Below, in pieces: positions 4,137 through 64,000 of a stretch of 64,000 bases of DNA (position 1 is its first letter; the number at the start of each line of letters is the position of its first letter). The stretch covers positions 39,928,001 to 39,992,000 of the forward strand of contig JANJGN010000010.1 of the NCBI GenBank assembly GCA_026770705.1, in the 5' to 3' direction. Both the position numbers and the translations under genes were made by a program. The stretch comes from Isurus oxyrinchus (taxonomy: Eukaryota). The notes below the pieces were generated by a model. It saw nothing but the letters and a program-made list of their open reading frames with translations, searched no databases and had not been told where the DNA came from.

Positions 4137-4347
4137 AATGACTTTCTCCAGTACACCTGAAATATTGACACCTTCCAACAGTGTGTTCTAATCCAACTTT
4201 CCAATGATTTTATAATCCAGAGTTAAAGTTTCAAAAGTTGCTCTCCCATTGAAATCCATCCTGAGACTATCTGTATGCTTATTGTAACAGACTATCTGAC
4301 TGAGTGCACAATAAGGATAGAAATTATATACTTGGCATGGTGTTTAC

Positions 4348-4425
4348 CTCTTTCAGAGGGAGCAGTCTTGTTTTCAGGAAGTATTCTTTCAGTATCACCT
4401 TCATTTTCTTTTGGTTTTTGTTGCC
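4348..4425 (-). CDS. Cytoplasmic spacer exon S5 (same peptide as S3/S4)
   Basis: 78-nt duplicate, offset 13871 from S4. Confidence 0.55.
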
Positions 4426-19400: not shown

Positions 19401-22400
19401 AAAATGACCTTAGAGGTGTTGACACTGAGGTTCAGCAGCCACGACGCCGTGAGATGCACATGGGTCCAGTGGTGTAAGTGCTTCAACGATCTGCTGCGAT
19501 CGGAAAGGGTGAGTCCCATGTTGGCATGGGTCACTTTACAGAAGAGTTAAGGGCTAGCCACCCTCCCGCCCTTGTGTACCTCAGAGGTGTTTGAGTGTGA
19601 GTGGCAAAGGTCAATGAGGCAGGATCTGGCCAGGAGGGTGAGCCCTGGCTGCTTGCACTGAGTGCCATGTGGCCCCAGGGTCAGGAATTGGCTGAGGCAT
19701 GCAAGGTGTTCCTCAGGTGGGATTAGACAGGCAGCAATGATCCTGCAGGTAGAGAGTGGACTAATCAATGCTCCTCTGCCCTTTCAGGAGAAAACATCCC
19801 ATAACAATGCAGAGAGGTCGCAGACTGGAGGGGGACCCTCACACCTCATCATCCTCTCGCATTACAAGCAGGAGGCCCTGAAGCTGGGGAGGCACCATGC
19901 ACCTCGATCAAGCAGCCGTGGTGAGGTTGGGCTGCCAGAGGGAGGTAAGAGTGCAGTGCACTGAGGTCAGAATATCAGTAATTGATACCATCCCAGAGTA
20001 GTCTCTATATTGATGCGAGCCTGGAACCTGGAATCCCCACTGATAATCGAAAGACAAGGGCACCATGATGCAAATCTCTGTTGCACCAGGTGCCAGGCAT
20101 GAACAGTGACAGTTTCATGACTCAAACTAAGGACATGTCCTTCTTCCCCCTTTTAGGCTCACCAGCAGTTCTTTAGGAATAGCCTGAAGGCCAACCTCTG
20201 ACCCCTGAGGACCACAATGCTGAGCACACACCAGCGTCACATCCACTCTGCCAAGCAAGTATCAGCGCAGATACCAGCACCTCGGTGGGCATAACATTGC
20301 TGGGTAATCTATCAGTGCACATTGGTGAGGGCACTTCACACTCACTTGAGGTGCAGGCGGAGGCAGAGAGTCCCCAGAGTGTCAGCTGTTGCAGAACTGC
20401 TGGGGACCAGGACAATGCTCAGTCAATGGCTGATGATGGGCTTCTGGAGTCATCCATGAGGCAGCAGATTCTGGATATCCAGCAGAGTATGTGGGAGGAT
20501 CTGGTGGAGATACATGAGGGAATGCGTGACATGGTGTCCATTGTGGAGGAGTCCATGTACAGCATAAACAGTGTTTGGCTCTCATGTCCAGAAGCAATGC
20601 CTCCTTCATGGAGAGGAAGGTGATTCCCATGGAAAGGCTCCTCCATGGGACTTAATCAGGGGTTCCTAGGAATGTGCTCAGACCTGCAAGCCCTCACACC
20701 GGCAATGACCTCAGCTGGTCAGTGTCAGTGTGGGAGATGGATTGGGCACCCAGTCTACCAGCTAAGTACCCGTTCATCAATGAGCAGGGAGGTCCAAAGC
20801 GTTGGCACATGACGTTGGCAGACAAGCTGCCTGTTGTCGCTGCGGGCTCCTTTCAGGGCGCTCTGGATGATGGCAGAGGCTCCTCTGCCCCAATGCCAGT
20901 GACATGGTATCTGAAGAGGCTGCAGTGACTGAGGAGTTGCCAGTCATGGCACTGGCCACGCCTTTCCCGGCGAAGCCAGCAAGGCTCCACGATCAGAGGA
21001 CGCTCGCCAAGGCCATCAAGGCCAACAGGACAGCAGAGTGAGCAGGCTGTCTCCAATGCCGGTGCCAGCGAGGGGGAAGCACCTAGACGGAGCACTTGCA
21101 AGCGAAATCTTAAAGGACATGAAGCACAACACAGCCTGATCACCGGTGATATTTGGTTCTCCCATTTTTCTTCATTTTTAATGGTGTGATGAAAACACTG
21201 GTTCATGTTCATTTCTGCTATTTTTAACCTTCACAAGTAAATGAGATGTTATTTTGTGCAACTGGCCTCTGTATGCTTCATTTGGATACATCAGGACACA
21301 GTGTAATGGAGCAGGGAATGTACAAACCATCAGATGTATGTTGTAATTCTGGCACCTCAGCACTTAAGGAATTCTCTTTCTTGCTTAAATCTAATGCATT
21401 TTTGAGGGGACGAGTTACTCTTTGGTCCTGATAACTGCTCTGCTGAAATTTCCCAGTGAAATAAATTCTTTGCTTCCTGCTCCCCTTTCCTCTTCACAGA
21501 TGTAACAATGTGCACCACTTCTGGACTGAACACAGTAACTTCCCAACTCAGATTGGTTTCCTCACCATCTATGATTTCACGAGGTTTCTTGATATCACTA
21601 ATTGAAGGTGGAGCTGGAAAACAAAAGATATTATTGAGATATAAACTCTTATGTTCCAACTTCTTCTATTTATTCTTATTTAGACACAAATTAGGAACTG
21701 AACAAACAGGAATGTTTATTGAACAATTAGACGGACAATTAATAGGTTCTCAGTTGCAGATGTCCCACTTTCTCTAAACTACATACAAGTTCTGCGCAAA
21801 CTGAGGTCCCTTCATCATACTGGGCTATTAACGAGCTAATGAACCACTGTTTGAGCCTCTTCGAGTGAATGACTTGTTGTTACTCAACTTGTGGCAGCTC
21901 TGTAAGTAAAGTTAGTTTCAGCCAGCAGGATTAGTGAACTGCAAGTTGTAGTGTACAGCCACCCTATGGGAATCGTGAACTTATTTTGGAGATGGACAGG
22001 TGGATTCAATTATTGCAGTCCATGTTGGGACCAACAACATGGTAAAGAGAAGGAAAGAGATCCTATTCGGAAACTATCAAGATCTAAGAGTTAATCAAAG
22101 GACAGCATCTCAAAAGTTATAATCTTTGGATTATTTCCCAAGCCACATACAAAACGGCATTGGGATAAATCATTTAGGGAGATGAACACATCATTGAATG
22201 GGTGGTGTGGGAAAGAGGGCTTCTTGAAGGACCTCCCGAGTCACTTCAGAGCATGAGCCAGTTTCTTGATCATATGTTCCAGGAGGTGGCCACCTCATAG
22301 GCAGTAAGAATTCAGGATATTAGATGGGTGATCATCCAGAAGAGTAGGAAGAGAGAAGAAGTGCAGGCCTCTTCAGACTATGTGCCACTCTGAAACCGGT

Positions 22401-25400
22401 ACTCATTATTGGAGACTGCTGGGTGCCAACACCCTGAAAGAGTGCACTCCAGATCATGGCACCAATGGGCAAAGGATTGCATGGGGGAAACAGCAAAATT
22501 TAGCAATGCAGTATAGGAGATTAAATAGTTAGGCAGGCAGATAGCATTTCTGTTACCCTCATCTCGAGTTCCACATAGTGTGGGGTATTGGAACTAGAAC
22601 TCAACAAGACTGGGGGAGGATGTGAGAGAGGAGCAGTGGGGAGCGTTGTGCACCAGAATTTCGAAGTAGAAAAGTGGAATAAAGGAGTGACAGTGTTGGA
22701 TAGTACTGGAAAAGGAAATAGGAGCATATTAGATAGGAACAAGCTAAGAAGGACTATGAGGAACACAAAGATAGCTTGACAGGGCATGCATATAAAGACA
22801 CAAAGTATGGTGAAGAAGCTTTGTGAGCCACAAGCAAAATATTCGTGTGAGAACTTGATGTAGTGGCAATAATGGAAGCGTGACTTAAAAAAAATGAAAA
22901 CTGGGGACCTAATATTCACAGATCGAAAGTGGTCAGAAGTGATAGGGAAGGAATAAAGGAAGTCAGGTGGTATAACTGATTAGGAAGAGAGTGCAGTGTT
23001 GGAAAGAAAGATTGTCCTTGAGGGGGTAAGCACTGAATCTACTTGATTGGAGTTGAGAAGGAAAAAGTGTATGGCCTCCAAATAGTGAGTGAGAGTGTGA
23101 GATGAAGGGGCAATTCTGGAGGAAAATCTTAGAGCTGTGTTAGAACTGTAGCATTGTTATATTGGGGTACTTTTGTTGAACAAATATTGACTGGGGTATT
23201 GTTAAGAGTGAAGGGTAAAGAGGGGGAGGACTTTTTGAAACATCTCCAGGAGAATTTCTTTGATTGGTATGTTTTTCGTCCAATTAGAAATGAGGCATTG
23301 CTGGATCTGATGTTGGGGAATGAGGTTGGCCAATTAGATCAGACATCTCTGGCGGAGCAATTGTATAAGTGTGATCATTATATCATAAGTAATGAGAAAG
23401 AACAAGGAACAATCTAACACAGAACTTCTGATTTGGAAGAGGGCTAACTTCAATGGGCTGAAAGAGGATTTTGCCAGGGCAAAATGGAACCAAAGTTTGA
23501 CAAAAAAAATGCAACTACAACAGAACAATGGGTGATCTTTAAAGAAGAGATATCAGCTAGATATACTCCAACAAAAAGGTAAGGCAGGAGAACCAAAACC
23601 TCGGATTCTTGGATGGCAAGAACAATAGATAATATGATGAAACAAAAAAATAGGGTGTATGATGCATATCAGCTGAATTCCTCAAGTGAGAACCGAGTTA
23701 AATATAATAAGCTGAGAAGAGAAATGAAGAGGAAAATAGGATTCGCAAAGAGAGAACATGAGAATAGAATTGCAACTAACATGTACAATGACCCCAAAAT
23801 TTTCTTCTTTAAAGTAACATTGAAAGCAGCACTGGTCAGGAGATAACAATCAGGGTAGATTACTCAAACTAAAATAGAAATTTGTAACAGAGAGGTTTAA
23901 GAGTTGCAGCAATGTTCCCCAGGATGAAGCCAGTAAGACTGTCAGGGGATGAAGTCAATCCACATAAATTGTGGCGCCTTGTTAAGAAATCATTATCTTT
24001 TGCCACAGTTGTGAACAATAACCTCAGGGTGGAGAATAGTAGAAATATAAGGAACAGTGTTTTACTTACTCACTGAACTGATAGTTAGCTTGACTGCGTG
24101 TATCATGGATGTTTTTGTGTCAAAGTGCAAGACTGTCAACAACAATCAGGAATAATTTCTACAGACAGAGAAGCAACGCAATGGGGAATGACACAAATGG
24201 AGAGAAGATGTCAGAATTTCACAAAGCCTGACCTGCAAACACTTTATGGAACATCATGAGTATGATGAAACCTCCATTCATGGATGAATGCTATGAGGAA
24301 TCAACTACAGTTTCGTTCATGAGTCATGCTTAGTTATGACATATATGTAAGCACACAATCAGATTGTTTATCCTACTCTGGGTCTTGGTTTGTTAAGGAT
24401 TCTCTCCCATCATCACTAGCTCTGACTGCAGCCGATGGAAAATGGCTGAGTGTGAATAGCAGCTCTGCAGCTTTCTGCGATCTCGATGTTATGAGAGCCC
24501 TCTGGGTCAGACAGGCTGCTGTGTGGGCCTCACCAGATACTGAGGATTTCAAATGACCATAGCTCTCACAGTTTTTCCATGATTTTTAGGGTGTTCCTTT
24601 CATTGTCCAGTTGTGCTGACCTTGACCTCCATCCACCTGAGAAGAGCCTCTTCCCACCTGAATGTTTTGCAATTGGACATCGAGGGCATTGTCTTGGAAT
24701 TGAGCTGCCTTTCTGTAGTGATGGTTCAGATTACTTTTCATACCCACTCAACCACCTTTTACCCTCCCCCTGTCATTCACCAACTTCCCCCCCACCCCAG
24801 CACCATCGACCCCCCTAATGTGACTTGCACTCTCCCCTCTGTAAACCTTCAACTCCCCATTACACTGTACCTATCATTATCAATCTTCACCTGCCTTCCC
24901 TCCCTGCAAAGACTACACCCATTACTGCACCCATGCCCACTTGCCCACTCCCCTTTTTGGTGCCAGCTTTCTTGTCCCCTTCAATGACCCTCCTGATGAG
25001 CATGACACCCGCCAAACACACACCCTGACGCTCCCACCCATACCTTCTTGCCATCAGTGCCCTCAGTTCTACCCCCAGAACTTTGTCATCGACACTACTG
25101 ACCACACCCTATAACACACTGTTCCACACTCCCTGCTCACTCCACCTACTTTGTAGCCTCCCACTGCCCCTCCTGCAGACTGACAACACCTTCATCTCTT
25201 CCAATCCCGCTTCATGCCCTCAACATCCCCTTCCCTTGCCTTCCACACCTTCTTTCCATGCGTACCATCTGTGATGGTGGCTCCTGTTACCCAACAGAAG
25301 ACTGGTCTTCCTCAATGGGGAAGGCAGCATCGTGTGCCTGCTAAGTCCTGGAAGTTACCCTCGCTCTGCACTTGCCACATTAGTTCATTCGTCAAACAGA

Positions 25401-31400: not shown

Positions 31401-34400
31401 TGGTCAGAAGAGATAGGGAAGGAATAAAGGAATAAAACAAAAAAACTGCGGATGCTGGAAATCCAAAACAAAAACAGAATTACCTGGAAAAACTCAGCAG
31501 GTCTGGCAGCATCGGTGGAGAAGAAGAGTTGACGTTTCGAGTCCTCATGACCCTTCGACAGCACTTGAGTTCGAGTCCAAGAAAAAGTTGAAATATAAGC
31601 TGGTTTAAGGTGTGTGTGTGGGGGGCGGAGAGATAGAGAGAGAGAGATGGTTGTATGGACAAACAAGCAGTGATAGAAGCAGATCATCAAAAGATGTCAA
31701 CAACAATGGTACAATAGAACACATAGGTGTTAAAGTTAAAGTTGGTGATATTATCTAAACGAATGTGCTAATTAAGAATGGATGGTAGGGCACTCAAGGT
31801 ATAGCTCTAATGGGGGTGGGGAGAGCATAAAAGATTTTAAAATATTTAAAAATAATGGAAATAGGTGTGAAAAGAAAAATCTATATAATTTATTGGAAAA
31901 AAAAGAAAGGGGGAAACAGAAATGGGGTGGGGATGGGGGAGGGAGCTCACGACCTAAAGTTGTTGAATTCAATATTCAGTCCGGAAGGCTGTAAGGTGCC
32001 TAGTCGGAAGATGAGGTGTTGTCCCTCCAGTTTGCGTTGGGCTTCACTGGAACAATGCAGCAAGCCAAGGACAGACATGAGGGCAAGAGAGCAGGGTGGA
32101 GTGTTAAAATGGCAAGCGACAGGGAGGTTTGGGTCATTCTTGCGGACAGACCGCAGGTGTTCTGCAAAGCGGTCGCCCAGTTTACGTTTGGTCTCTCCAA
32201 TGTAGAGGAGACCACATTGGGAGCAATGAATGCAGTAGACTAAGTTGGGGGAAATGCAAGTGAAATGCTGCTTCACTTGAAAGGAGTGTTTGGGCCCTTG
32301 GACGGTGAGGAGAGAGGAAGTGAAGGGGCAGGTGTTACATCTTTTGCGTGGGCATGGGATGGTGCCATAGGAGGGGGTTGAGGAGTAGGGGGTGATGGAG
32401 GAGTGGACCAGGGTGTCCCGGAGGGAGCGATCCCTACGGAATGCCGATAGGGGGGGGTGAAGGGAAGATGTGTTTGGTGGTGGCATCATGCTGGAGTTGG
32501 TGGAAATGGCGGAGGATGATCCTTTGAATGCGGAGGCTGGTGGGGTGATAAGTGAGGACAAGGGGGCCCCTATCATGTTTCTGGGAGGGAGGAGAAGGCG
32601 TGAGGGCGGATGCGCGGGAGATGGACCAGACACGGTTGAGGGCCCTGTCAACGACCGTGGGTGGAAAACCTCGGTTAAGGAAGAAGGAGGACATGTCAGA
32701 GGAACCGTTTTTGAAGGTAGCATCATCGGAACAGATGCGAAGAAGGCGAAGGAACTGGGAGAATGGGATGGAGTCCTTACAGGAAGCGGGGTGTGAAGAG
32801 CTGTAGTCGAGGTAGCTGTGGGAGTCGGTGGGTTTGTAATGGATATTGGTGGACAGTCTATCACCAGAGATTGAGACAGAGAGGTTAAGGAAGGGAAGGG
32901 AAGTGTCAGAGATGGACCACGTGAAAATGATGGAGGGGTGGAGATTGGAAGCAAAATTAATAAATTTTTCCAAGTCCCGACGAGAGCATGAAGCGGCACC
33001 GAAGTAATCATCGATGTACCGGAGAAAAAGTTGTGGAAGGGGGCTGGAGTAGGACTGGAACAAGGAATGTTCCACATACCCCATAAAGAGACAGGCATAG
33101 CTGGGGCCCATGCAGGTACCCATAGCCACACCTTTTATTTGGAGGAAGTGAGAGGAGTTGAAGGAGAAATTGTTCAGCATGAGAACAAGTTCAGCCAGAC
33201 GGAGGAGAGTAGTAGTGGATGGGGATTGTTCGGGCCTCTGTTCGAGGAAGAAGCTAAGGGCCCTCAGACCATCCTGGTGGGGGATGGAGGTGTAGAGGGA
33301 TTGGACGTCCATGGTGCAGAGGAAGCGGTTGGGGCCAGGGAACTGGAAACTGTTGATGTGGCGTAAGGTGTCAGAGGAATCACGGATGTAGGTGGGAAGG
33401 GACTGGACAAGGGGAGAGAGAAGGGAGTCAAGATAACGAGAAATGAGTTCTGTGGGGCAGGATGTGGCAGGACCAAGCTGAGACGATTGGTCTACCGGGG
33501 CAGTTCTGTTTGTGGATTTTGGGTAGGAGATAGAAGCGGGCCGTCCGAGGTTGGGCGACTATCAGGTTGGAAGCTGTGGGAGGGAGATCCCCAGAGGAGA
33601 TGAGGTCAGTGACAGTCCTGGAAACAATGGCTTGATGTTCAGTGGTGGGGTCATGGTCCAGGGAGAGGTAGGAGGAAGTGCTGTTGTTGTCTGGCGCACT
33701 GACCTCTACTTCGCGGAGGCTGAGCGTCAACTCGCAGACACTTCCTCCTGCCTCTCCCTGGACCATGACCCCACCACTGAACATCAAGCCATTGTTTCCA
33801 GGACTGTCACTGACCTCGTCTCCTCTGGGGATCTCCCTCCCACAGCTTCCAACCTGATAGTCGCCCAACCTCGGACAGCCCGCTTCTATCTCCTATCCAA
33901 AATCCACAAACAGAACTGCCCCGGTAGACCGATCGTCTCAGCTTGCTCCTGCCCCATCCTGCCCCACAGAACTCATTTCTCGTTATCTTGACTCCCTTCT
34001 CTCTCCCCTTGTCCAGTCCCTTCCCACCTCCATCCGTGATTCCTCTGACACCTTACATCACATCAACAGTTTCCAGTTCCCTGGCCCCAACCGCTTCCTC
34101 TTCACCATGGACGTCCAATCCCTCTACACCTCCATCCCCCACCAGGATGGTCTGAGGGCCCTTAGCTTCTTCCTCGAACAGAGGCCCGAACAATCCCCAT
34201 CCACTACTACTCTCCTCTGTCTGGCTGAACTTGTTCTCACGCTGAACAATTTCTCCTTCAACTCCTCTCACTTCCTCCAAATAAAAGGTGTGGCTATGGG
34301 TACCCGCATGGGCCCCAGCTATGCCTGTCTCTTTATGGGGTATGTGGAACATTCCTTGTTGCAGTCCTACTCCGGCCCCCTTCCACAACTTTTTCTCCGG

Positions 34401-37400
34401 TACATCGATGATTACTTCGGTGCCGCTTCATGCTCTCGTCGGGACTTGGAAAAATTTATTAATTTTGCTTCCAATCTCCACCCCTCCATCATTTTCACGT
34501 GGTCCATCTCTGACACTTCCCTTCCCTTCCTTGACCTCTCCGTCTCAATCTCTGGTGATAGACTGTCCACCAATATCCATTACAAACCCACCGACTCCCA
34601 CAGCTACCTCGACTACAGCTCTTCACACCCCGCTTCCTGTAAGCACTCCATCCCATTCTCCCAGTTCCTTCGCCTTCGTCGCATCTGATCAGATGATGCT
34701 ACCTTCAAAAACGGTTCCTCTGACATGTTCTCCTTCTTCCTTAACCGAGGTTTTCCACCCACGGTCGTTGACAGGGCCCTCAACCGTGTCCGGTCCATCT
34801 CCCGCGCATCCGCCCTCACGCCTTCTCCTCCCTCCCAGAAACATGATAGGGTCCCCCTTGTCCTCACTTATCACCCCACCAGCCTCCGCATTCAAAGGAT
34901 CATCCTCCGCCATTTCCGCCAACTCCAGCATGATGCCACCACCAAACACATCGGCCCTTCACCCCCCCATCGGCATTCCATAGGGATTGCTCCCTCCGGG
35001 ACACCCTGGTCCACTCCTCCATCACCCCCTACTCCTCAACCCCCTCCTATGGCACCACCCCATGCCCACACAAAAGATGTAACACCTGCCCCTTCACTTC
35101 CTCTCTCCTCACCGTCCAAGGGCCCAAACACTCCTTTCAACTGAAGCAGCATTTCACTTGCATTTCCCTCAACTTAGTCTACTGCATTCGTTGCTCCCAA
35201 TGTGGTCTCCTCTACATTGGAGAGACCAAACGTAAACTGGGTGACCGCTTTGGAGAACACCTGCGGTCTGTCTGCAAGAATGACCCAAACCTCCCTGTCG
35301 CTTGCCATTTTAACACTCCACCCTGCTCTCTTGCCCACATGTCTGTCCTTGGCTTGCTGCATTGTTCCAGTGAAGCCCAACGCAAACTGGAGGAACAACA
35401 CCTCATCTTCCGACTAGGCACCTTACAGCCTTCCGGACTGAATATTGAATTCAACAACTTTAGGTCGTGAGCTCCCTCCCCCATCCCCACCCCATTTCTG
35501 TTTCCCCCTTTCTTTTTTTTCCAATAAATTATATAGATTTTTCTTTTCACACCTATTTCCATTATTTTAAATATTTTAAAATCTTTTATGCTCTCCCCAC
35601 CCCCATTAGAGCTATACCTTGAGTGCCCTACCATCCATTCTTAATTAGCACATTCGTTCAGATAATATCACCAACTTTAACTTTAACACCTATGTGTTCT
35701 ATTGTACCATTGTCGTTGACATCTTTTGATGATCTGCTTCTATCACTGCTTGTTTGTCCATACAACCACCTCTCTCTCTCTCTATCTCTCCGCCCCCCAC
35801 ACACACACCTTAAACCAGCTTATATTTCAACTTTTTCTTGGACTCGAACTCAAGTTCTGTCGAAGGGTCATGAGGACTCGAAACGTCAACTCTTTTCTTC
35901 TCCGCCGATGCTGCCAGACCTGCTGAGTTTTTCCAAGGTATAAAGGAAGTTGGGTGGCAGTACTGATTAGAGAAGAGATTGTAGTGTTGGAAAGAGACAA
36001 AGTCCTTAAGGGGATAAGCACAGATTCCACTTGATTGGAGTTGAGAAGCAAAAAGTGTATGGCCTCCAAATAGTGAGAGAAAGAGATGGAGGGGCAATTC
36101 TGGAGGAAAATCTTAGAGCTTTGTAGAAATGTAGAATAGTTATATTGGGTTACGTTTGTTACCTAGATATTGACTAGGATAATGTCAGAGGAAAGGGTAA
36201 GAAGGGGGAGGAATTTTTGAAATGTGTTCAGGAGAACTTCCTTGATTAGTATGTTTTTGGTCCAATTAGAAATGAGGCATTGCTGGATCTGATGCTGGGG
36301 AATGAGGTTGGCCAATTAGATCAATCATCTGTGGCAGAGTAATTGGGTAAGAGTGATCATTGTATCATAAGTAATAGAGAAGAGCAAGGAACAATCTAAA
36401 GTAGAACTTCTAATTTGGCAGAGGGCTAACTTCAATGGGATGAGAGGGGATTTTGCCAGGGTAAAATGGAACCTAAGTTGGACAGAAAAAATGTAATGTA
36501 TCAGAACAGATGTTTCAAGCATAAACCAGGTACACTCCATCAAAAGAGAAAGGCAGTGGAAACAAAACTAGGGCTTCTTAGATGGCTAGAGCAATCGAGA
36601 ATATGATGAATCAAAAAATAGGGCGTATGATCCATATCTGGTGAATTCCTCAAGTAAGAACCAGGCTAAATATAATACGTTGAGAAGAGAAATAAAGAGG
36701 AAAATAAGATTTACAAAGAGAGAACATGAGAATAGAATGGCAACTAACATATACTAAACTCAAAAATCTTCTACATTATGTAAATAATAAACAGGTGGTA
36801 GGAGGTGGGGCGAGGCCTGTTCGGGACAGTAGGGTGAATATCTGTTTAGAGGTGGCGGGCAAGGCTCAGATACTTAATGAGTACCCTTGTATTGGGGTTT
36901 ACTAAAGAAGAGGATGCTGAGGTAATGGATGTGCTGAAAATTGATGGGCAGGATGTACTGGAAAGGATGCCTATGTTTAGAATGGATAGGGTGCTTCATC
37001 TGGATGTCTTCTATCCCAGGTTATCGAAGGGGAGTGGAAATAGCAGAAAGGTTTGCCATAAGCTTCAAATCATTCCTCAATGTGGATGAGGTGCTAGAAG
37101 ATTGGAAAGTGGCAAAGGTGACACACTTGTTGATTCCTGGTAACCACAGTTGGTCAGTTTAACATCAGTGGTGGGTAAGATTTTAGAAACAATAAACAGA
37201 GAAAAATTTAAACAGGCACTTGGAGAGGTTTGATTTAATTAAGAAGATGCAGCATTGATTTGTAAAAGGCAGATCGTTTTTGACTAATTGAATCTTTTGA
37301 TGAAGAGAATGCAGTGGATGTTGTCTATATGGATTTAAAGAAAATGACAAATGCCAATTAAAAGACTGGTTAACGAAAATTGAAGTTTCTGGGGCAGGAT

Positions 37401-49400: not shown

Positions 49401-52400
49401 TCCTTGGTCATCTGAAACCTATACACCCCCTCGCCCACCCCGGCAGGACTGTCTATTCCCCCACATCCTCCTTCCCCAGTCTGGTCTCTTCTGGTAGAGG
49501 GCAGCCATGCCTGTGCCCCACACCAGTTCCTGCAGGTAGAGTGCAGCCCTGCCAGCACTCCCCACACTAGTCTTGCCTGAGAACAGCTTTGCCAGCGGTC
49601 AGGAGTCAGAGCAGCAGCAAGAGATGGCAGCAGTGGTGCAGCAGGCAGGCTTACAATGTTGTACGCACCTTGAAGTTGTGACTCAAGTGAAGGCGGGCAG
49701 GTGCACAGAGGGTGAATGTGATTCCGGTGAGTTGTGATTTTAATAAGTATTCATGATATGCTAATACATGCAAATTGGGCTCCGGACATGGATCAGCAGG
49801 AAAGTCGACCTGCCATTAGACTGCCATGAAAGTCCTGTGGGGAAAATTCATTCCAACTTATTTTCCCGCTGGCGGATATCCCACTTTTGGCCTCATGCCC
49901 AATTTTGCGTTTCTGCCCACCACGATTCCCACCTCTGGCGGGAGCGGAAAATTCCACCCAATCAGTGGAACAGCTGCCAGCTCTGCCCTGCTTCAGAATT
50001 CTTCAATAACCCCTTCAGCTGCCAACAAAAGGCCATTTTTAAAATTTACTTTTTTTTTAAACAACTTCCTATGAGGTTGGGAGGGACACAATGACATTCA
50101 AACTCTAACCACACCCAATGTTCAATGATTAACTCCAGCCTGGAGTCCAGAGTTCAGGCATTGTAGCTGCATGGCTGACCTTGACACTCCCTATTTGTTT
50201 GCACTTGGTTAAGACAAGATGTGGTATATAAACTATCCCTAAACTTGTTATATACAAAATAGGGGTCTGCATTTGGCTGATACCAATCCTCTGAAGAGCT
50301 GGGTGAGGAAAATAGAAAAATCGAGATTCAAATAAAGGGGAAAATACTAGAACAACAGAAAAATCAAAGGGTAATTTTTTTGACTTCAGTATGACATGTC
50401 CATACCAATAACAAATGCTACAAGGTGGACAAGACAAGGTTTATATCCTGATTTCAATCAAACCAATTCTCCTATAAATTAATTTCAACTATCCTGAATA
50501 TAGAACACAAAATATCAGCCTCATTTTTGAAAAGGATTTAAAAAAAAACATTCTATCTCAGCAGTGTTCTCTTGTGCTGGGAAGACCTATTAAAGTTAAA
50601 ATCTGCTGACAAATATATTGGATGCCTGCCCCATTCACACTGTTTGCAGGGTTGGAGAAAAACACTGTGCATCACAGTAGAAAACCAGAATATACCATGA
50701 GGCAAGTTCAATTGGTCACAGATCAGCTGCTTTCACAGCACCCACAGGAACAGTATAACTGGGGGCCTGAGAAGCTAATATAATGCCTGTGCCAAAAGCA
50801 GATGATTTGTAACTATAGATGTTATGTGTGAGAAAGGTAATGAGAGCTTCACTACTGTAAAGAAATAAATAACCATAACCTGTACTCTTCTCTAACCAGA
50901 TCTTACCTTCAACTGAGTCAGCATCCAGCATAAAATTGCGAAGAAGGGTTTTATGCTTCACCACACATCTATAGTTAGTGCCATCACCCAATGTTGGTTC
51001 AATTCTTATTTTACTGGAAACACTGAATGTTCCATCACTGTTTGTAACTAAGTCATCAGTGGACTGGCTTTGTGTAACGTATTCCATTTTTCCATTTGAT
51101 AATATGAACCAACTAATATTGAGCTGTTTAGGAAAAAATTCCTGAACATCACACACCAGAAAGTGCTCTGCACCATTTACAGTTGTAATTTCTTGTCTGG
51201 ACATGCTGACTTTTGGCTGGGCTGCGTAAAAGAGAACAGTTGTTAGTTGTAAGTTGTTAATACATCATCTATACATATCAAACTAGACTTTACTGATTCT
51301 TGCTCTGGGAAACTTGAAAAATCCATCCTAGCTGTGGTATCCAAAAATCTACTGCATTGTTGCCATTTTCTTGTGTTTTTTGTTAACTTGCAGGATGATC
51401 CTTGAATATGGAGGCTGATGTGGTGGATGATGAGGATGAGGGGAACCCTATCATGATTGTGGGAGGGAGAGGAAGGGGTAAGAGCAGAAGTGTGTGAAGA
51501 TCTGACACGTTTGAGGGTCCTGTCGAGCATGCTGTGTGGGGGTTGGGGAAGGAAAAAGGAAAATATATTGGAAATGCTAGTATGGCAGATTGCATCATCT
51601 GAACAGATGTGGCAGAGAAAATGGGAGAAAGGAATAGGGGCGTTACAGGAAGCAGGAGGTGAGGAAGTGTAGTTCAGATAATCCATTTCTACAATCTCCA
51701 GCATAATGCTATCAACAAACACATCTTCCCTAGCCCTCCCCTTTCAGCAGTCCAAAGGAATTGTTCCCTCTGTGACACCCTGATCTACTTGTCAGTCATC
51801 CCCACCACCCCATTTCTATGGCACCTTTCCCTGCTAGCACAGGAGATGCAACACCTGCCCTATTACCTCCTCCCTTCTCACCATCCAAGGCCTAAAACAC
51901 TCCTTCCAAGTGAAACAGTCATTTGCTAGTATTTCTTTCAATTTAGTATACTGTATTCACTGCTGACCATGTGGTCTCCTCTGCACTGGGGAGACTGAAC
52001 ACAGACTGGGTTAACACTTTGTGAAATACCTCTATTAAGTCTGCAAGCATGACCCTGACATTCCTGTCACTTATTTCAATTCTCCAGCTTGCTCTCACTC
52101 TAGGCTTTCTGCCTTTGGCCTGCTGTGGTGTCCTAATGAAACTCAATACAAGGAACAGCACTTCCTCTTTTGACTGGGCATTCGAAAGCCTCCTGGACTT
52201 AACATTGAGCTCAAACATTTTAGATCATAACCTCTGCCTCTATTTTTTTTCTTTATTTTTGCTGGTTCATTTTTTTTCATTTGTTTTTCCATTTGTTCAC
52301 TTTGCATTTGGACCACTGCTAGCTAACCATTCACACCTCACCTGAACACATTTTTTGTTTCTTTTTATTATCCATTACCACAAAAACTTTTGTCACTTAT

Positions 52401-58400: not shown

Positions 58401-59989
58401 ATGAACGTGGTACGGCATTAAAAGCTCAGTCAAGGTGTAACTTTTTCTATGGTTCTTACAGCAAGAGTTGAAGATCTTGTCGGTTCAATGATTTTCCTAT
58501 TGATTGCACTCCTGGGGAACCTCGACAGTGCATCGTCACGAGAAGCGCAAAATCACTCGTTTTCCATGTTTAACTGTGCATGTGAAGGCTCCAAAAAGTT
58601 TCTGTAACTTTCGGGGAAGTATTTATGGTGAACGCTTACAGTTTCACCGTAAGTACTATCGCCCATTGAACGACATTAAAAACTTAGCACAGCAACTTCA
58701 TGATTGAAAGAGTACTCATAATGGCAATAACCTTTACGTTTTTAAAAACATTCTCAATTAAGAGTAAAATGGCAAAATATACATAAAAGTATGAGTTTAG
58801 ATGGGCAAAATTCTTAAGTATCAAAAATGTAAATTAAATATGATTCTGTACTATTATATCATATTATAAGTGGTTTGTGACTTGTGCGCAATCCAGACTA
58901 AACTCCAACATTAAGTGATTTTCTTGCTAACAATGCAGTTACAGATGGTGCTTTCCTCAACAGAAACAAGAGAAGCTGAGAGCAAAAACAAAAACAAAAA
59001 TACCTGGAAAAACTCAGCTGGTCTGGCAGCATCGGCGGAGAGATGCTGCCAGACCTGCTGAGCTTTTCCAGGTATTTTTGTTTTTGTTTTCGAGTTCCAG
59101 CATCCGCAGATTTTTGCTTTTAAACTGAGAGTAAATTCGTTTTACTGAAATCAGACGGGAGGGGCGGTAAAGAGCAGAATGCCGACAGAAATCGTAATAA
59201 TTTTAGCTTCATTTCTTTAAAAAAAATCAACAGAAAATGTTCAAACTTTTGTAATTGTGCTTTCGACTTATAAAAAGAAAAAAATCAGGTCAGTAATATT
59301 CATTGGACGAAGAAACAGGCAAAATGAGAGCACACAACGATAAAATCTGGACGTGCCAACATTTTAATACCACCTCTGAAAACCTGTAGTTCATCAGTGT
59401 CTCCGAATTATTGGCTGTTTTACTTTCATCATTACACGGCTATTTATTAATATTAAGGAGAAAAATCACTTAAGAATCCGAATACCGCATTTACCCTGGA
59501 AAAAGTCAGCAGGTCTGGCATCATCGGTGGAGAAGAGCATAGTTGGCGTTTCGAGTCCTCATGACCTTACAACAGAAGGATTCTGTTCTCCACTCTTCTC
59601 CACCGATGCTGCCAGACCTGCTGAGTTTTTCCTAGTATTTGTTTTTATTTTTGTTTTGGATTTCCAGCATCCGCAGTTCTTTGCTTTTACCGCATTTACC
59701 CTTTCGCATTTGGGGATCAAATAAAAATCATGATTACAAGTACCATTACTGAAAACGCTTCGATAAATCACCGTTAAAAGATAAATCCATGCAGCACAAC
59801 AGGGGGATTAAACGTTTTGTGCGGGGTCGGAAAATTGCCTGAAGCAAACTAAAGGTCGAATCTATAATCCAGAACCTAATGGGTGACACGCTGTTTGTTT
59901 AGGGTTTCCACGCACAACCAAGAACCGCTTATCTTACCGGTTAATGAAATGGAAGACACGATGATAACACACAAAGCTAAGATCCCCAT
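4348..59989 (-). CDS. NCR3LG1: B7-H6/NCR3LG1-like type I membrane protein gene (SP-IgV-IgC1-TM plus expanded cytoplasmic exon array); 3' end not resolved in the window
   Basis: Exons 59938-59989, 54173-54511, 50907-51221, 45741-45839, 42226-42303, 39270-39692 and 38454-38528 join in one open frame with GT-AG phase-1 junctions. Further paralogous exons lie at 25882-25959, 18219-18296, 10998-11420 and 4348-4425. The IgV motif GNASLYLPNVQLSEEGKYTCIVFVTPHK resembles B7-H6 ([28 protein letters not shown]), and it is followed by a C1-set domain. Orthologue versus paralogue cannot be decided here. Confidence 0.8.
5114..7383 (+). mobile_element. Harbinger-type element with Myb/SANT-like gene remnant, right end deleted
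   Basis: Left TIR ggggcagaatttt. ORF 5232-5651 APCFS..RRMPP..RCTWVQWCKCFNDL. Abuts the truncated Ig-like exon. Confidence 0.75.
7384..7715 (-). pseudogene. Second frameshifted, truncated copy of the cytoplasmic Ig-like exon
   Basis: ORF 7459-7761. Same lesions as 21282-21613 (tandem duplicate). Confidence 0.8.
8080..9930 (+). mobile_element. Decayed CR1 LINE fragment (duplicate at 21980-23830)
   Basis: ORF 9255-9518 GEDFLKHVQENFL..PIRNEALLDLMLGN (endonuclease region) and ORF 9714-9947. Confidence 0.8.
10998..11420 (-). CDS. Cytoplasmic Ig-like exon cIg2 (141 aa, intact)
   Basis: Within ORF 10912-11439. 423 nt, same splice sites as cIg1, 33 of 141 residues differ by manual count. Confidence 0.75.
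13156..15320. mobile_element. Solo LTR (TG...CA, ~1.36 kb net) inserted in a LINE and carrying a nested CR1 fragment; partial duplicate at 1-1449
   Basis: Ends tgtta / taaca with flanks tttg / cttg (4-bp TSD, one mismatch). The interrupted LINE is contiguous across it. Confidence 0.7.
14021..14822 (-). mobile_element. CR1 LINE 3' fragment nested in the LTR
   Basis: ORFs 14540-14803 (IHFGRSN..LVRPQLEYCVQF) and 14101-14292 (FFTHRVVTVWNALP) are the CR1 ORF2 C-terminus. Confidence 0.9.
18219..18296 (-). CDS. Cytoplasmic spacer exon S4 (same peptide as S3)
   Basis: 78-nt duplicate of S3 with intact splice sites. Confidence 0.6.
18985..21281 (+). mobile_element. Duplicate of the Harbinger-type element at 5114-7383
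   Basis: ORFs 19103-19477 (APCFSDECLSALLEEV) and 19359-19550. Confidence 0.75.
21282..21613 (-). pseudogene. Frameshifted, 3'-truncated copy of the cytoplasmic Ig-like exon (possible terminating exon)
   Basis: ORF 21357-21659. Acceptor intact. A 2-nt deletion after GPK gives TGA at 21357. Homology stops after CPDVSK and the donor is lost. Confidence 0.8.
24400..28308 (+). repeat. Third partial copy of the unit (matches about 2860-7185), more diverged
   Basis: ORFs 24579, 25083 and 26234 parallel 3039, 3544 and 4700. Confidence 0.9.
25882..25959 (-). CDS. Cytoplasmic spacer exon S3 (GQQKPKENEGDTERILPENKTAPSER)
   Basis: 78 nt, tttaag acceptor, AG|GTAAAC donor, open frame. Confidence 0.65.
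26635..28444 (+). mobile_element. Chimeric Harbinger-type element (left part as 5114; right end from the 40082 MITE)
   Basis: ORF 26755-27069 APCFLDKCLSAFLEEV. Switches at about 28305 (gcac) to sequence matching 40650-40789. Confidence 0.7.
28622..28900 (+). mobile_element. tRNA-headed Deu-domain SINE (SacSINE1/AmnSINE-like); copy at 40971-41250, remnant at 11960-12060
   Basis: A/B-box-like head (tggcttagctggt..ggttcgagc) and Deu-like core caggtggatgtaaaagatccc, recognised from memory. Confidence 0.55.
28925..29440 (+). mobile_element. Possible non-autonomous Helentron-type (HINE/DINE-like) element; copy at 41275-41785
   Basis: ggaggtaatgtttt start, gtttgt/gtctgt microsatellite, gatctggattcagatc hairpin and 3' ttggagggg..gctct/gagt hairpin resemble fish HINE layout. 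Confidence 0.4.
29791..29810 (-). pseudogene. Remnant of a deleted spacer exon (donor site and last ~5 nt only)
   Basis: Aligns to 42215-42335 with about 95 bp missing (exon body and acceptor). Confidence 0.7.
31433..35939. mobile_element. Penelope-like retroelement (RT plus GIY-YIG), two 5'-truncated arms in head-to-head inverted orientation
   Basis: RT motifs MDVQSLYTSIP, GVAMG-MGPSYA and RYIDD (32434-33312 minus; 34107-34688 plus). GIY-YIG NLVYCIHC..LYIGET (31947-33131 minus). 9-bp flanking duplication ataaaggaa. Confidence 0.95.
35853..35891 (+). ncRNA. Minimal type I hammerhead-like motif in the Penelope 3' terminal region (variant core CUGUCGA); mirror copy at 31527-31565 on minus
   Basis: agtt-CTGTCGA-a-gggtc-atgag-gactc-GAAA-cGTC-aact: stem I, core, stem II and palindromic ACGT stem III. 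Penelope elements are known to carry minimal hammerheads. Confidence 0.55.
37960..38182. mobile_element. Short palindromic Penelope-tail element
   Basis: gcaaatgctggaaa...gcagcatctgtg / cacagatgctgcc...tttccagcattt inverted arms, homologous to the Penelope 3' end. Confidence 0.7.
38454..38528 (-). CDS. Cytoplasmic spacer exon S2 (GQQKSKESEDDTGGAVLEMIPHNKR)
   Basis: 75 nt, ttcag acceptor, AG|GTAAA donor. Homologous to S1, including the downstream intron. Confidence 0.7.
39270..39692 (-). CDS. Cytoplasmic Ig-like exon cIg1 (141 aa, degenerate C1-like fold lacking the canonical Cys pair)
   Basis: Within ORF 39196-39738. Polypyrimidine tract plus ctag acceptor, CAG|GTAAT donor, 423 nt open. Motifs PSISDI, GEETNLxW, FSP, SDG, DDGAELxVEVKQ and STVLKV align to C1-set strands. 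Confidence 0.8.
40082..40789. mobile_element. Harbinger-type MITE (~710 bp)
   Basis: Ends ggggagaattt / aatatcctggcc with a 3-bp aca duplication. A homologous empty site is present at about 11760-11780. Confidence 0.7.
42226..42303 (-). CDS. Cytoplasmic spacer exon S1 (RQSKAKEIEDDTGRALIEKQSSQSPR)
   Basis: 78 nt, tttaag acceptor, AG|GTAAA donor, open frame, phase 1/1. Paralogous to S2-S5. Confidence 0.75.
42350..45490 (+). mobile_element. Decayed, internally deleted CR1 LINE including ORF1 esterase-like region
   Basis: VRDSIIKGTD..CCL..AGVRDIS (SGNH-like ORF1), endonuclease remnants (ALLDLMLGNE) and CR1 3' tail. Paralogous copies at 29825-37385, 8080-9930 and 21980-23830. Confidence 0.8.
45741..45839 (-). 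CDS. NCR3LG1: Exon 4, transmembrane segment (EQIPIGPIIGSICGFVVLCAVCLGYYFWNKKHK)
   Basis: Overlaps ORF 45700-45915. About 23 hydrophobic residues followed by a basic stop-transfer KKHK. Acceptor taacag, donor A|GTAAG, 99 nt. Confidence 0.9.
46122..49959 (+). mobile_element. PIF/Harbinger-type DNA transposon with a decayed spliced Myb/SANT-like gene
   Basis: TIRs gggcagaattttc / gaaaattccaccc and 3-bp TSD AAT. ORF 47556-47876 has Myb/SANT-like FSHDSL..VCERHDVLF..WEE..RKRMN. Confidence 0.8.
46150..47356 (-). mobile_element. Nested non-autonomous Harbinger-type element (Myb/SANT remnant)
   Basis: TIRs gggtggaatt / gattctgccc, TSD TAA (46147-46149, 47357-47359). ORFs 46885-47283 and 46543-46872 (AWEVV..RKRMNDL). 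Confidence 0.8.
50907..51221 (-). CDS. NCR3LG1: Exon 3, IgC1 domain (AQPKVSMS...LVCDVQEFFPKQLNISW...NSDGTFSVSS...YRCVVKHKTL...DSVE)
   Basis: Overlaps ORF 50716-51204. C1-set hallmarks CxxxxFFP, W, NxDGTF and YxCxVxH. Acceptor cgcag, donor G|GTAAG, 315 nt. Confidence 0.93.
51330..52528. mobile_element. Older degenerate Penelope-like element with an inverted 5' part
   Basis: Minus-strand ORF 51243-51722 (YLNYTSSPPASC..IPFSHFL..ICSDD), followed by plus-strand GIY-YIG-region homology and tail agttctgatgaa. Confidence 0.75.
53270..57350. mobile_element. Cluster of nested CR1 fragments on both strands flanking the IgV exon (53270-53960; 54845-57350)
   Basis: ORFs 54998-55204 (CEVIHFG..KANGMLAFIAR), 55269-55526 (KFADDTKLGG) and 55865-56110. 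Confidence 0.8.
54173..54511 (-). CDS. NCR3LG1: Exon 2, IgV domain (ETLELEIFPSPLEISANQDALLMCKF...VRW...GNASLYLPNVQLSEEGKYTCIVFVTPHKEEKSSVMQVS)
   Basis: Overlaps ORF 54159-54479. Canonical V-set Cys, Trp and ExGxYxC. Acceptor taaag, donor G|GTAAG, 339 nt. Confidence 0.93.
58983..59122. mobile_element. Mini fold-back Penelope-tail element
   Basis: aaaaatacctggaaaaactcagc..ggcagcatc / gatgctgcc..tttccaggtattttt arms, flanked by ctgagag repeats. Confidence 0.7.
59498..59687. mobile_element. Mini fold-back Penelope-tail element with a 15-bp target duplication
   Basis: Inverted arms. taccgcatttaccct at 59483-59497 and 59688-59702. Confidence 0.75.
59938..59989 (-). CDS. NCR3LG1: Exon 1, signal peptide MGILALCVIIVSSISLT
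   Basis: ATG at 59989, hydrophobic 17-aa leader and phase-1 donor G|GTAAG. Splices in frame to the IgV exon. Confidence 0.85.
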
Positions 59990-60466: not shown

Positions 60467-63400
60467 AGTTACACAGTCTGGTTTGGCTTGGCATCGACTG
60501 TTCAGTCAAAGAGAAGGAAGGCAGCTTTTACAGAAAATGCTGGCTTGGCCTAAATAGCCAAGTGGTTATGGTACTGGGTTTGTAACCCCAAGATCAAGCG
60601 ATCAAATCTCACAATGGCAAACTATGAAACAATGTAACTTCATCTGAAACAGATGGAAATGGGTTTGTGCTCGAAAGAGTATCAAGAGTTCAAATCTCAC
60701 AATGGCAAACTATGAAACAATGTAACTCCATCTGAAACAGATGGAAATGGGTTTGTACTCGAAAGAGTATCAAGAGTTCAAATCTCACAATGGCAAACAA
60801 TGTAACTTCATCTGAAACAGATGGAAATGGGTTTGTACTCAAAAGAGTTACAGCCAAATATCCTTTGGGCTTGGCCTAAATAGCCAAGTGGTTATGGTAC
60901 TGGGTTTGTAACCCTAAGATCGAGAGTTCAAATCTCACAATGGCAAACTATGAAACAATGTAACTTCATCTGAAACAGATGGAAATGGGTTTGTGCTCGA
61001 AAGAGTATCAAGAGTTCAAATCTCACAATGGCAAACTATGAAACAATGTAACTTCATCTGAAACAGATGGAAATGGGTTTGTACTCGAAAGAGTATCAAG
61101 AGTTCAAATCTCACAATGGCAAACTATGAAACAATGTAACTTCATCTGAAACAGATGGAAATGGGTTTGTACTCGAAAGAGTTACCCCCTCACCCATTAA
61201 AAACTCGAAAGAGTTACACAGTTTGGCTTGGCATCGACTGTTCAGTCAAAGAGAAGGAAGGCAGCTTTTACAGAAAATGCTGGCTTGGCCTAAATAGCCA
61301 AGTGGTACTGGGTTTGTAACCCCAAGATCAAGAGTTCAAATCTCACAATGGCAAACAATGTAACTTCATCTGAAACAGATGGAAATGGGTTTGTACTCAA
61401 AAGAGTTACAGCCAAATATCCTTTGGGCTTGGCCTAAATAGCCAAGTGGTTATGGTACTGGGTTTGTAACCCTAAGATCGAGAGTTCAAATCTCACAATG
61501 GCAAACTATGAAACAATGTAACTTCATCTGAAACAGATGGAAATGGGTTTGTGCTCGAAAGAGTATCAAGAGTTCAAATCTCACAATGGCAAACTATGAA
61601 ACAATGTAACTTCATCTGAAACAGATGGAAATGGGTTTGTACTCGAAAGAGTATCAAGAGTTCAAATCTCACAATGGCAAACTATGAAACAATGTAACTT
61701 CATCTGAAACAGATGGAAATGGGTTTGTACTCGAAAGAGTTACCCCCTCACCCATTAAAAACTCGAAAGAGTTACACAGTTTGGCTTGGCATCGACTGTT
61801 CAGTCAAAGAGAAGGAAGGCAGCTTTTACAGAAAATGCTGGCTTGGCCTAAATAGCCAAGTGGTTATGGTACTGGGTTTGTAACCCCAAGATCAAGCGAT
61901 CAAATCTCACAATGGCAAACTATGAAACAATGTAACTTCATCTGAAACAGATGGAAATGGGTTTGTGCTCGAAAGAGTATCAAGAGTTCAAATCTCACAA
62001 TGGCAAACTATGAAACAATGTAACTCCATCTGAAACAGATGGAAATGGGTTTGTACTCGAAAGAGTATCAAGAGTTCAAATCTCACAATGGCAAACAATG
62101 TAACTTCATCTGAAACAGATGGAAATGGGTTTGTACTCAAAAGAGTTACAGCCAAATATCCTTTGGGCTTGGCCTAAATAGCCAAGTGGTTATGGTACTG
62201 GGTTTGTAACCCTAAGATCGAGAGTTCAAATCTCACAATGGCAAACTATGAAACAATGTAACTTCATCTGAAACAGATGGAAATGGGTTTGTGCTCGAAA
62301 GAGTATCAAGAGTTCAAATCTCACAATGGCAAACTATGAAACAATGTAACTTCATCTGAAACAGATGGAAATGGGTTTGTACTCGAAAGAGTATCAAGAG
62401 TTCAAATCTCACAATGGCAAACTATGAAACAATGTAACTTCATCTGAAACAGATGGAAATGGGTTTGTACTCGAAAGAGTTACCCCCTCACCCATTAAAA
62501 ACTCGAAAGAGTTACACAGTTTGGCTTGGCATCGACTGTTCAGTCAAAGAGAAGGAAGGCAGCTTTTACAGAAAATGCTGGCTTGGCCTAAATAGCCAAG
62601 TGGTACTGGGTTTGTAACCCCAAGATCAAGAGTTCAAATCTCACAATGGCAAACAATGTAACTTCATCTGAAACAGATGGAAATGGGTTTGTACTCAAAA
62701 GAGTTACAGCCAAATATCCTTTGGGCTTGGCCTAAATAGCCAAGTGGTTATGGTACTGGGTTTGTAACCCTAAGATCGAGAGTTCAAATCTCACAATGGC
62801 AAACTATGAAACAATGTAACTTCATCTGAAACAGATGGAAATGGGTTTGTGCTCGAAAGAGTATCAAGAGTTCAAATCTCACAATGGCAAACTATGAAAC
62901 AATGTAACTTCATCTGAAACAGATGGAAATGGGTTTGTACTCGAAAGAGTATCAAGAGTTCAAATCTCACAATGGCAAACTATGAAACAATGTAACTTCA
63001 TCTGAAACAGATGGAAATGGGTTTGTACTCGAAAGAGTTACCCCCTCACCCATTAAAAACTCGAAAGAGTTACACAGTTTGGCTTGGCATCGACTGTTCA
63101 GTCAAAGAGAAGGAAGGCAGCTTTTACAGAAAATGCTGGCTTGGCCTAAATAGCCAAGTGGTTATGGTACTGGGTTTGTAACCCCAAGATCAAGCGATCA
63201 AATCTCACAATGGCAAACTATGAAACAATGTAACTTCATCTGAAACAGATGGAAATGGGTTTGTGCTCGAAAGAGTATCAAGAGTTCAAATCTCACAATG
63301 GCAAACTATGAAACAATGTAACTCCATCTGAAACAGATGGAAATGGGTTTGTACTCGAAAGAGTATCAAGAGTTCAAATCTCACAATGGCAAACAATGTA

Positions 63401-64000
63401 ACTTCATCTGAAACAGATGGAAATGGGTTTGTACTCAAAAGAGTTACAGCCAAATATCCTTTGGGCTTGGCCTAAATAGCCAAGTGGTTATGGTACTGGG
63501 TTTGTAACCCTAAGATCGAGAGTTCAAATCTCACAATGGCAAACTATGAAACAATGTAACTTCATCTGAAACAGATGGAAATGGGTTTGTGCTCGAAAGA
63601 GTATCAAGAGTTCAAATCTCACAATGGCAAACTATGAAACAATGTAACTTCATCTGAAACAGATGGAAATGGGTTTGTACTCGAAAGAGTATCAAGAGTT
63701 CAAATCTCACAATGGCAAACTATGAAACAATGTAACTTCATCTGAAACAGATGGAAATGGGTTTGTACTCGAAAGAGTTACCCCCTCACCCATTAAAAAC
63801 TCGAAAGAGTTACACAGTTTGGCTTGGCATCGACTGTTCAGTCAAAGAGAAGGAAGGCAGCTTTTACAGAAAATGCTGGCTTGGCCTAAATAGCCAAGTG
63901 GTACTGGGTTTGTAACCCCAAGATCAAGAGTTCAAATCTCACAATGGCAAACAATGTAACTTCATCTGAAACAGATGGAAATGGGTTTGTACTCAAAAGA
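60467..64000 (+). repeat. tRNA-derived higher-order satellite (88-bp monomer; alternating 740- and 558-bp subunits; 1298-bp period), continues past the window edge
   Basis: Marker gcatcgactg at 60491, 61231, 61789, 62529, 63087 and 63827. Monomer atcaagagttc at 60681 and 60769. Confidence 0.97.
60873..60945 (+). pseudogene. tRNA-Thr(TGT)-like head inside the satellite (representative copy; two per subunit)
   Basis: A box TAGCCAAGTGG, D arm, anticodon loop TTTGTAA and B box GTTCAAATC in tRNA spacing. Acceptor, anticodon and T stems contain mismatches. Confidence 0.75.

Follow-up and report, generated by a model that had tools for sequence, protein, structure and literature searches.

A concatemer of tRNA-Thr-like SINEs with a small local triplication, probably joined by template jumping of a Tx1-type LINE reverse transcriptase

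Introduction

What kind of repeat closes the window analysed here, a stretch of 64,000 nucleotides of Isurus oxyrinchus DNA in which the repeat lies ~40 Mb along a 169-Mb contig, and how could it have arisen? A sequence-only reading had described a higher-order satellite containing a complete Pol III unit of about 395 nt, and had proposed either a transcribed satellite or a dense array of TFIIIC sites amplified from a tRNA or SINE head. The feature is real and its class was mistaken: the array consists of SINEs concatenated end to end, part of them in a small local triplication, and is no true satellite. As a satellite the locus would be ordinary; the interest rests on the family to which its units belong.

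Results

Architecture of the array

The array runs from position 60542 of the window to 64452, that is 452 nt past the window's end, and measures 3.9 kb; no further heads were found in the ~29 kb that follow it. Inside the window lie 11 heads and the starts of 27 monomers, arranged as alternating subunits of 740 bp and 558 bp that each consist of two heads and then one to three monomers of 88 or 80 bp, which is the layout that had been described. Equally accurate were the claims that almost every monomer begins with a B box (the quoted B box was found in 24 of the 27, a variant in the other three) and that each subunit has a single T4 run (at 60526, 61266, 61824, 62564, 63122 and 63862). The higher-order block of 1,298 bp is repeated about three times, with 0 mismatches at this period across 60481–62979. 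A satellite is a long homogeneous tandem array, and the term was therefore an overstatement for 3.9 kb comprising about three 1.3-kb copies.

All features of the array lie on the forward (+) strand. Higher-order unit 1 (60468–61770; subunits 740+558, the first 5 bp longer) opens with host flank (60468–60541, with a T4 at 60526–60529), which is the template of spacer A and occurs once, free of SINE, at each of two empty paralogous sites (L025 and L026). The 5′ copy of a 13-bp target-site duplication (TSD) occupies 60530–60542 and differs by two substitutions from the 3′ copy, located after the array at window+452, and from both empty sites. The first SINE unit (60542–60852) has an A-box head and monomers of 88, 88 and 80 bp, of which the first carries a variant B box. 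It is followed by spacer B (60853–60867), read as a trailer that lay 3′ of a source SINE and was cut at a T-run, with repeats at 61411, 62151, 62709 and 63449. The next SINE unit (60868–61183) combines an intact head, including a tRNA-like fold at 60874–60945, with three 88-bp monomers. Behind it lie spacer C and a ~17-bp 3′-end fragment common to the SINE and LINE-A (61184–61218), for which a genome-wide exact search gave five matches, all within the array and none outside it. Spacer A (61213–61281), which reproduces the 5′ host flank except for a 5-bp deletion and carries a T4 at 61266–61269, repeats at 61771, 62511, 63069 and 63809; the block ends with a SINE unit (61282–61410) made of a head with a 6-bp deletion and one 80-bp monomer. 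Higher-order unit 2 (61771–63068) matches unit 1 exactly from 60481 on. Unit 3 (63069–64000) continues beyond the window, where its tail comprises a truncated monomer, a trailer derived from locus L160 on contig C9, a last head with its monomer and the 3′ TSD.

The Rfam tRNA model (RF00005) matched five of the 11 heads, including the intact one, at 34 bits (gathering threshold 29) and an E value of 4e-4, with the acceptor stem unpaired in the alignment, and ARAGORN called 0 tRNA genes in the window. These two results rule out a functional tRNA cluster. A degenerate search returned 28 matches, and four of nine distinct scanned loci were called as tRNA-Thr(TGT). The head aligns with such genomic genes over the D, anticodon and T arms, and the alignment of the anticodon loop upholds the TGT anticodon claimed for it. 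In this comparison, which covered tRNA-Thr genes, tRNA-Thr emerges as the likely donor of the head. With its A and B boxes, this tRNA-related head also has the form expected of a tRNA-derived SINE.

Empty sites and local duplication

Beyond the window's end, at 44 kb and at 132 kb, lie the two paralogous stretches that carry the empty site, and comparison with them exposes the 13-bp TSD around the array. The same comparison identifies spacer A, T4 included, as a 69-bp copy of host flank within the array. That it might be a piece of a longer mobile element was ruled out, since it is host flank found at three paralogous sites only. The ‘complete Pol III unit’ is formally there, as the first T4 lies 402 nt from the head at 60868 (396 from 60874) and such a head-to-T4 unit is present five times; its T4, however, is copied host flank, which makes the terminator incidental and the ∼400-nt unit a by-product of local duplication.

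The 69-bp flank copy could be a long TSD left by a second insertion, or else the product of a microhomology-mediated duplication, the latter being conceivable because host flank and SINE end have seven bases in common at the spacer A joint. Short TSD spacers are absent from this array. Between the 740- and 558-bp subunits there are differences in head and monomer number, and these argue for at least one true duplication. The same differences speak against the view that the chain is real and its exact three-fold 1,298-bp repeat an artefact of assembly, a view that bears on the local duplication step only. It draws on the 0 mismatches over 2.5 kb, compared with about 7–8 changes per ~125 bases between units of the family; on the other side, contig depth in run X1 is 135–185 over spacer A against 92 on the adjacent flank, a depth that is no copy number. 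An artefact here appears rather unlikely.

A dispersed SINE family that forms chains

The unit of the array, ~142 bp long and tRNA-Thr-like, is dispersed through the genome: a 45-base word from its head finds 10,036 exact matches, against 0 for the control. The earlier suggestion of amplification from a tRNA or SINE head was thus correct. When the first 100 heads of contig C1 are taken, 35 pairs of neighbours are less than 3 kb apart, where 0.85 would be expected, and 17 of 18 clusters keep to a single strand. A position-ordered set was drawn from these heads, consisting of 61 of their 65 clusters. One head is present at 28 of the 61 loci, at least two at 33 and at least four at 15, with a maximum of 29; solo ~142-bp copies account for 17 loci, and the 3′ end of a LINE is included in 12.

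TSDs of at least 10 bases (10–17) were found at 31 of the 48 loci with both flanks, compared with 61/2,256 in a cross-locus control. In 25 of these 31 the TSD starts at offset 0–1 of the SINE end motif and so inside it, which points to microhomology priming. The poly-A or microsatellite tail that is usual, if not universal, in SINEs is missing, and copies end directly in the TSD. The family is nevertheless one of SINEs, being short, interspersed, high in copy number, bounded by TSDs and possessed of a 3′ end in common with a LINE.

One host repeat recurs as a target. Its flank at locus L201 encodes a DDE_Tnp_4 transposase remnant, a domain that we take to be Harbinger-type, and the repeat is therefore called a Harbinger-type element here. 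A single site in it is used by 12 of 60 SINE loci, or exactly 20%, the criterion for target preference in PMC4494074 being over 20%.

Raw reads from a related species (run X24) cover the SINE at ~12,000-fold depth in 1,887 million letters. They contain head-to-tail joints, 794 reads for example joining 60680 to 60543, and in 1,164 reads the LINE tail stands ahead of a monomer. These joints indicate that the chains are no assembly artefacts and are common to two species. From organism B, three reads over the array flank do not separate a filled from an empty site. Run X15, which was only presumed to be RNA and consists of contigs only, contains SINE contigs in which neither level nor strand can be read, and the small share from a coral metatranscriptome carries no evidential weight.

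A search of the largely open-access literature found no description of this SINE or of the SINE/Tx1 LINE pair described below, and the family may already be catalogued in Repbase, Dfam or SINEBase. Three motifs were looked for in one supplement of PMC13343379 and none was present. In the rows consulted of a table in PMC3747384, shark SINEs are paired with other LINEs.

A Tx1-type LINE as partner

LINE fragments in the chains led to a ~7-kb element with two ORFs and with APE endonuclease and RT domains. Its ORF2, as judged from the fragment at L093, is 51% identical to Xenopus TX1 ORF2 (YTX2_XENLA) over 96%, and the TX1 149-kDa protein is its closest named relative; together, these characters point to membership of the Tx1 clade. 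A search of solved structures matched only the human L1 endonuclease, which does not separate L1 from Tx1. A word from the LINE 3′-UTR has 3,176 exact matches in the genome. Among 30 LINE ends, taken in order of position and not de-duplicated, eight carry the last 23 bases of the SINE (21/23 identical in L066), 20 run on into the 88-bp monomer (19 in full, L082 for only 12 bases) and two have neither. In the commoner LINE form, the 88-bp monomer also serves as the 3′ end.

Moreover, a same-strand SINE head lies less than 3 kb from 12 of 33 LINE clusters, against a random mean of 0.22, a maximum of 3 in 2,000 and a single opposite-strand case. LINE ends often precede the same target word as the SINE, an observation not counted per independent locus. 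The sequences show a 3′ end and insertion sites that this Tx1-type LINE and the SINE have in common.

In all five near-full LINE copies the start lies immediately after the B-box 12-mer and in register with the SINE, whereas a duplication of this 12-mer was seen, by eye, at none of nine truncated LINE 5′ junctions. This suggests that the monomer travels within the LINE RNA. LINE form B as a present-day, DNA-level inserter into SINE B boxes is ruled out by the same 5′-truncated junctions. An ancestral LINE copy may have been embedded in SINE sequence and have retained the SINE 3′ half.

Spacers as probable trailers of source loci

If a spacer is the 3′ trailer of a Pol III transcript from a source SINE, then at one locus it should enter a T-run followed by unique DNA, and its daughters should stop in the T-run; the trailer test was set up on these terms. 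Spacer B has 26 exact matches at 18 loci. At one of them, the solo SINE L119 on contig C7, it runs into a T4 and then into unique DNA; at the remaining 17 the T-run is followed by a head (16) or a LINE fragment (1). Eight different linker strings of 0–4 bases occur at the joints among the parsed heads, and the daughter arrays sit in differing TSDs. About five changes private to L119 are missing from most daughters, so this copy may be a sibling of the true source.

The array's last spacer gave 43 matches, of which 20 were examined: 14 are a host repeat without a SINE and five are daughters joined to heads. Its source is L160, a SINE chain in that host repeat with its own TSD and a T5, and the five daughters carry the extra A of this source. 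The nearest head at L160 sits behind LINE-derived T4 runs, which was counted against the trailer model. For a spacer of the unrelated array L163, 12 matches were found; the source is the solo SINE L219, with a TSD and a T5, and the other 11 are joined to a head (10) or to a LINE piece (1). One T-ending spacer of L192, one of four searched, has no other match in the genome.

The position-ordered set has 44 distinct short spacers outside the TSD class (some of which are misfiled TSD variants), and 14 of them end in a T-run; the corresponding count is 0/17 for TSD spacers and 4/48 for outer flanks. With only 14 of 44 ending in this way, the trailer model explains part, and not all, of the joints. 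Other RNAs are joined into the chains as well: in 20 chosen loci, Rfam and ARAGORN identified U6 (L190), 5S (L010), tRNA-Met (L044) and tRNA-Asp (L163), and at L180 three tRNA copies, each of them duplicated. The copies of U6, 5S and tRNA whose placement was read share the orientation of the SINE, and several have a leader and a trailer.

TSD copies as spacers

A second class of spacer consists of TSD sequence, copies of an array's own TSD lying between units in nine of 28 arrays (cross-locus control 126/9,135). Such spacers could reflect successive insertions into one site, the mechanism put forward for SINEU-3, or re-priming within one event. Six of these arrays lie outside the preferred target (seven by script, of which L046 lies inside). 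The units that flank TSD spacers are not duplicates of one another: 0 of 40 pairs differ by one change or fewer, the mean is 7.1 differences as against 8.2 across loci, and 16 of 40 have the same architecture compared with 229 of 584 across loci. The unit-difference test pooled the position-ordered set with an ‘extra’ set, which is biased in having been chosen by score or spacer, and the other fractions are from the position-ordered set. Since the architecture of units beside TSD spacers agrees no better than in random pairs, and near-duplicates are absent, unequal crossing-over is disfavoured, and as the origin of TSD-spaced units it is unsupported.

These data bear on the idea that chains grew, in the absence of template jumping, as new copies entered a regenerated target at different times, with unequal crossing-over between TSDs and the inheritance of multimeric master copies. 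Stepwise growth of this kind is proposed for SINEU-3 in the sections of PMC4494074 seen, and for blood-clam SINEs in those of PMC11481361; the 12 of 60 loci at one site of the Harbinger-type element, the own-TSD copies in nine of 28 arrays and the block duplications in the window's array and at L180 all fit it, and this mode of growth may well account for the TSD-spacer class. It offers no route, however, by which a distant trailer, cut at its T-run, comes to stand straight before a head with varied linkers; the units beside TSD spacers, which are not duplicates, and the six arrays with TSD spacers outside the preferred target also count against it. As an account of the chains this is unlikely.

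Discussion

From the sequences compared here, the chains were probably formed when scattered Pol III transcripts were joined through serial jumping of the Tx1 reverse transcriptase, the product being inserted once and, at this locus, duplicated locally afterwards. Source SINEs would lack a terminator of their own, so that Pol III reads to the first T4 or T5 of the flank, and the resulting trailer would label each SINE RNA with its source locus. The Tx1 protein would nick the target and prime through a short match to the end of the SINE; its RT would copy the RNA to the 5′ end, add 0–4 untemplated bases and then jump to the 3′ U-run of a further RNA, which may be a SINE, a pre-tRNA, 5S, U6 or the LINE. 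Monomer number would shift through inheritance of a form with a head and two monomers and through switching within the 88-bp monomer. The 558- and 740-bp subunits and the 1,298-bp unit are, by sequence, exact local copies that include the 69 bp of host flank, and would have been generated by duplication. Host function would be unnecessary in this account.

A bolder version, which we offer tentatively and with the balance somewhat against it, is iterative target-primed reverse transcription (TPRT). The Tx1 enzyme would copy the target overhang, regenerate its primer and restart, writing chains of up to ~30 units together with their TSD spacers in one event; chains would be snapshots of germ-cell Pol III output, and the main LINE form would have taken its 3′ end from its own SINE. 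If this were true, each chain would preserve the Pol III transcripts of one germ cell (active SINE sources, pre-tRNAs, 5S and U6), trailers would be barcodes of source genes, and the LINE's acquisition of a 3′ end from its SINE would be the opposite of the textbook direction.

An identical order of pieces would result if RNAs were ligated to one another before reverse transcription and the Tx1 protein copied the chimeric RNA. The cellular ligase requires a 5′-OH and a cyclic phosphate, which differ from a start bearing a triphosphate and an end in U-OH, and untemplated additions are typical of RT jumping. The joints in the chains fall at the intact SINE 5′ end, with 0–4 extra bases that vary between daughters, and the ends expected there, triphosphate and U-OH, mismatch the ligase chemistry. 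Although RNA ligation is named as an alternative for U6-transgene fusions in the portion of PMC11371274 consulted, we judge it improbable for these chains. A transcribed satellite or dense TFIIIC array maintained for host function, as in the sequence-only reading, could invoke the B boxes kept in most monomers (24/27) and the five 402-nt head-to-T4 units, and is nevertheless very improbable, as the array is only 3.9 kb long and missing at two paralogous sites, dispersed copies keep their B boxes equally, being young, the T4 is copied flank, and comparable chains are the rule in the family.

Serial template jumping appears to shape about half of the insertions of this family, which would make it a natural case of the process. 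Which SINE copies act as sources has long been asked, and the trailers would make the active ones identifiable from the genome alone; the chains may record small RNAs being made in a germ cell. Through such chains a SINE may also become a tandem repeat by a path whose first step does not depend on recombination, and a highly jump-prone RT may serve RNA library methods.

The closest precedent is the crocodilian SINEU/Tx1-Mar system, which works alike, yet the present SINE is no SINEU member, as its head is tRNA-like and not derived from U1/U2 snRNA. According to the parts of PMC4494074 that describe them, SINEU-1/2/3, with Tx1-Mar and Tx1-9_AMi, are likewise moved by Tx1 LINEs and prefer a site within a DNA transposon; they too form tandem copies that sandwich a TSD, and their repeated 5′ additions are put down to template switching. 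In the same parts of that paper Pol III is excluded for the U1/U2 heads, no common LINE 3′ end is reported, and tandems are read as a sequential insertion of two copies. Here, in contrast, a tRNA head is accompanied by Pol III-type trailers traceable to their sources, the 3′ end is common to SINE and LINE, chains reach 29 heads, and the preferred target is the Harbinger-type element, unlike that of SINEU (PMC4494074).

Both layouts given for blood-clam SINEs in the text seen of PMC11481361, TSD-(SINE-TSD)n and TSD-(SINE)n-TSD, occur here, as do internal repeats without most of the tRNA head. There, such arrays are put at 3% of copies, with highly similar units for which unequal recombination is proposed; in the present family 33 of 61 loci are involved, units are as unlike as random pairs and foreign RNAs are included. 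The SINE-derived satellites (sSat) of squamates, as far as the text drawn on from PMC10702118 describes them, are likewise tandem repeats of SINE parts at many dispersed loci, repeated up to hundreds of times, and the local 1,298-bp triplication is comparable to an early stage of them. In sSat parts of SINEs are repeated, whereas here whole units are joined via trailers, TSD copies and other RNAs.

Serial template jumping by R2 proteins in vitro (PMC11371274) and U6/LINE and other template-switch chimeras (PMC4476161) are known. In the excerpts drawn on from both papers these are in vitro products or occasional single switches, whereas about half of the loci here are multi-template chains. Finally, Xenopus Tx1L inserts inside a DNA transposon (as related in the part of PMC4494074 seen); in contrast, the commoner form of the present LINE ends in the B-box half of the SINE and, in 5/5 near-full copies, starts directly behind SINE sequence.

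Neighbouring duplications and repeats

Window positions 1-10504 and 13872-24403 form a segmental duplication (98.7% identity over 10.5 kb), with further, diverged copies as far as about position 45 kb, and exon-like frames recur. Together with an immunoglobulin C1-set domain encoded on the reverse strand at 50716-51264 (E 9e-14), the repeated frames point to what is probably an Ig-superfamily gene cluster.

A reverse transcriptase-encoding element, Penelope-like by its motifs, is present as an inverted duplication at 31481-35940 (4.5 kb, 97%; RVT_1, E 3e-6). The arms of a hairpin of about 100 bp at 58985-59090 match the ends of this element, and the hairpin is probably repeat-derived for that reason; its matches to microRNA families all fall under the gathering scores.

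Alternative ends and derivatives of the SINE/Tx1 system

Some insertions (loci L034, L113, L114 and L166) terminate at the B box and not at the true end. Since the B-box motif differs from the true end motif by one base, the B box seems to act as a second priming end. The commoner Tx1 LINE form is enclosed by SINE sequence, starting directly after the B-box 12-mer at its 5′ side and ending in the 88-bp monomer at its 3′ side (L093, L095, L099, L101 and L111). As regards its promoter, the T4 runs within the LINE would be expected to halt Pol III.

The 3′ end of the Tx1 LINE also makes up a tandem repeat with a unit of about 431 bp (L106 and L107; G000:C1:28.19-28.22 Mb), in 41 copies of about 92-94% similarity within the fetched 20 kb. 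This is a truer satellite out of the same SINE/Tx1 system.

Other SINE chains

Further trailers, the spacers behind SINE ends, are common to unrelated arrays in two pairs, L033/L051 and L095/L163. At L208 and L209, tRNA-Thr(TGT)-like copies with their trailer lie within a SINE chain and are joined to a head.

The chain at L180 comprises 29 heads and contains a duplicated block of about 2.1 kb, with captured tRNAs inside the block. Its probable history is the same two steps as that of the window array, likely reverse transcriptase joining followed by local duplication, and in both a block has been duplicated within a SINE chain.
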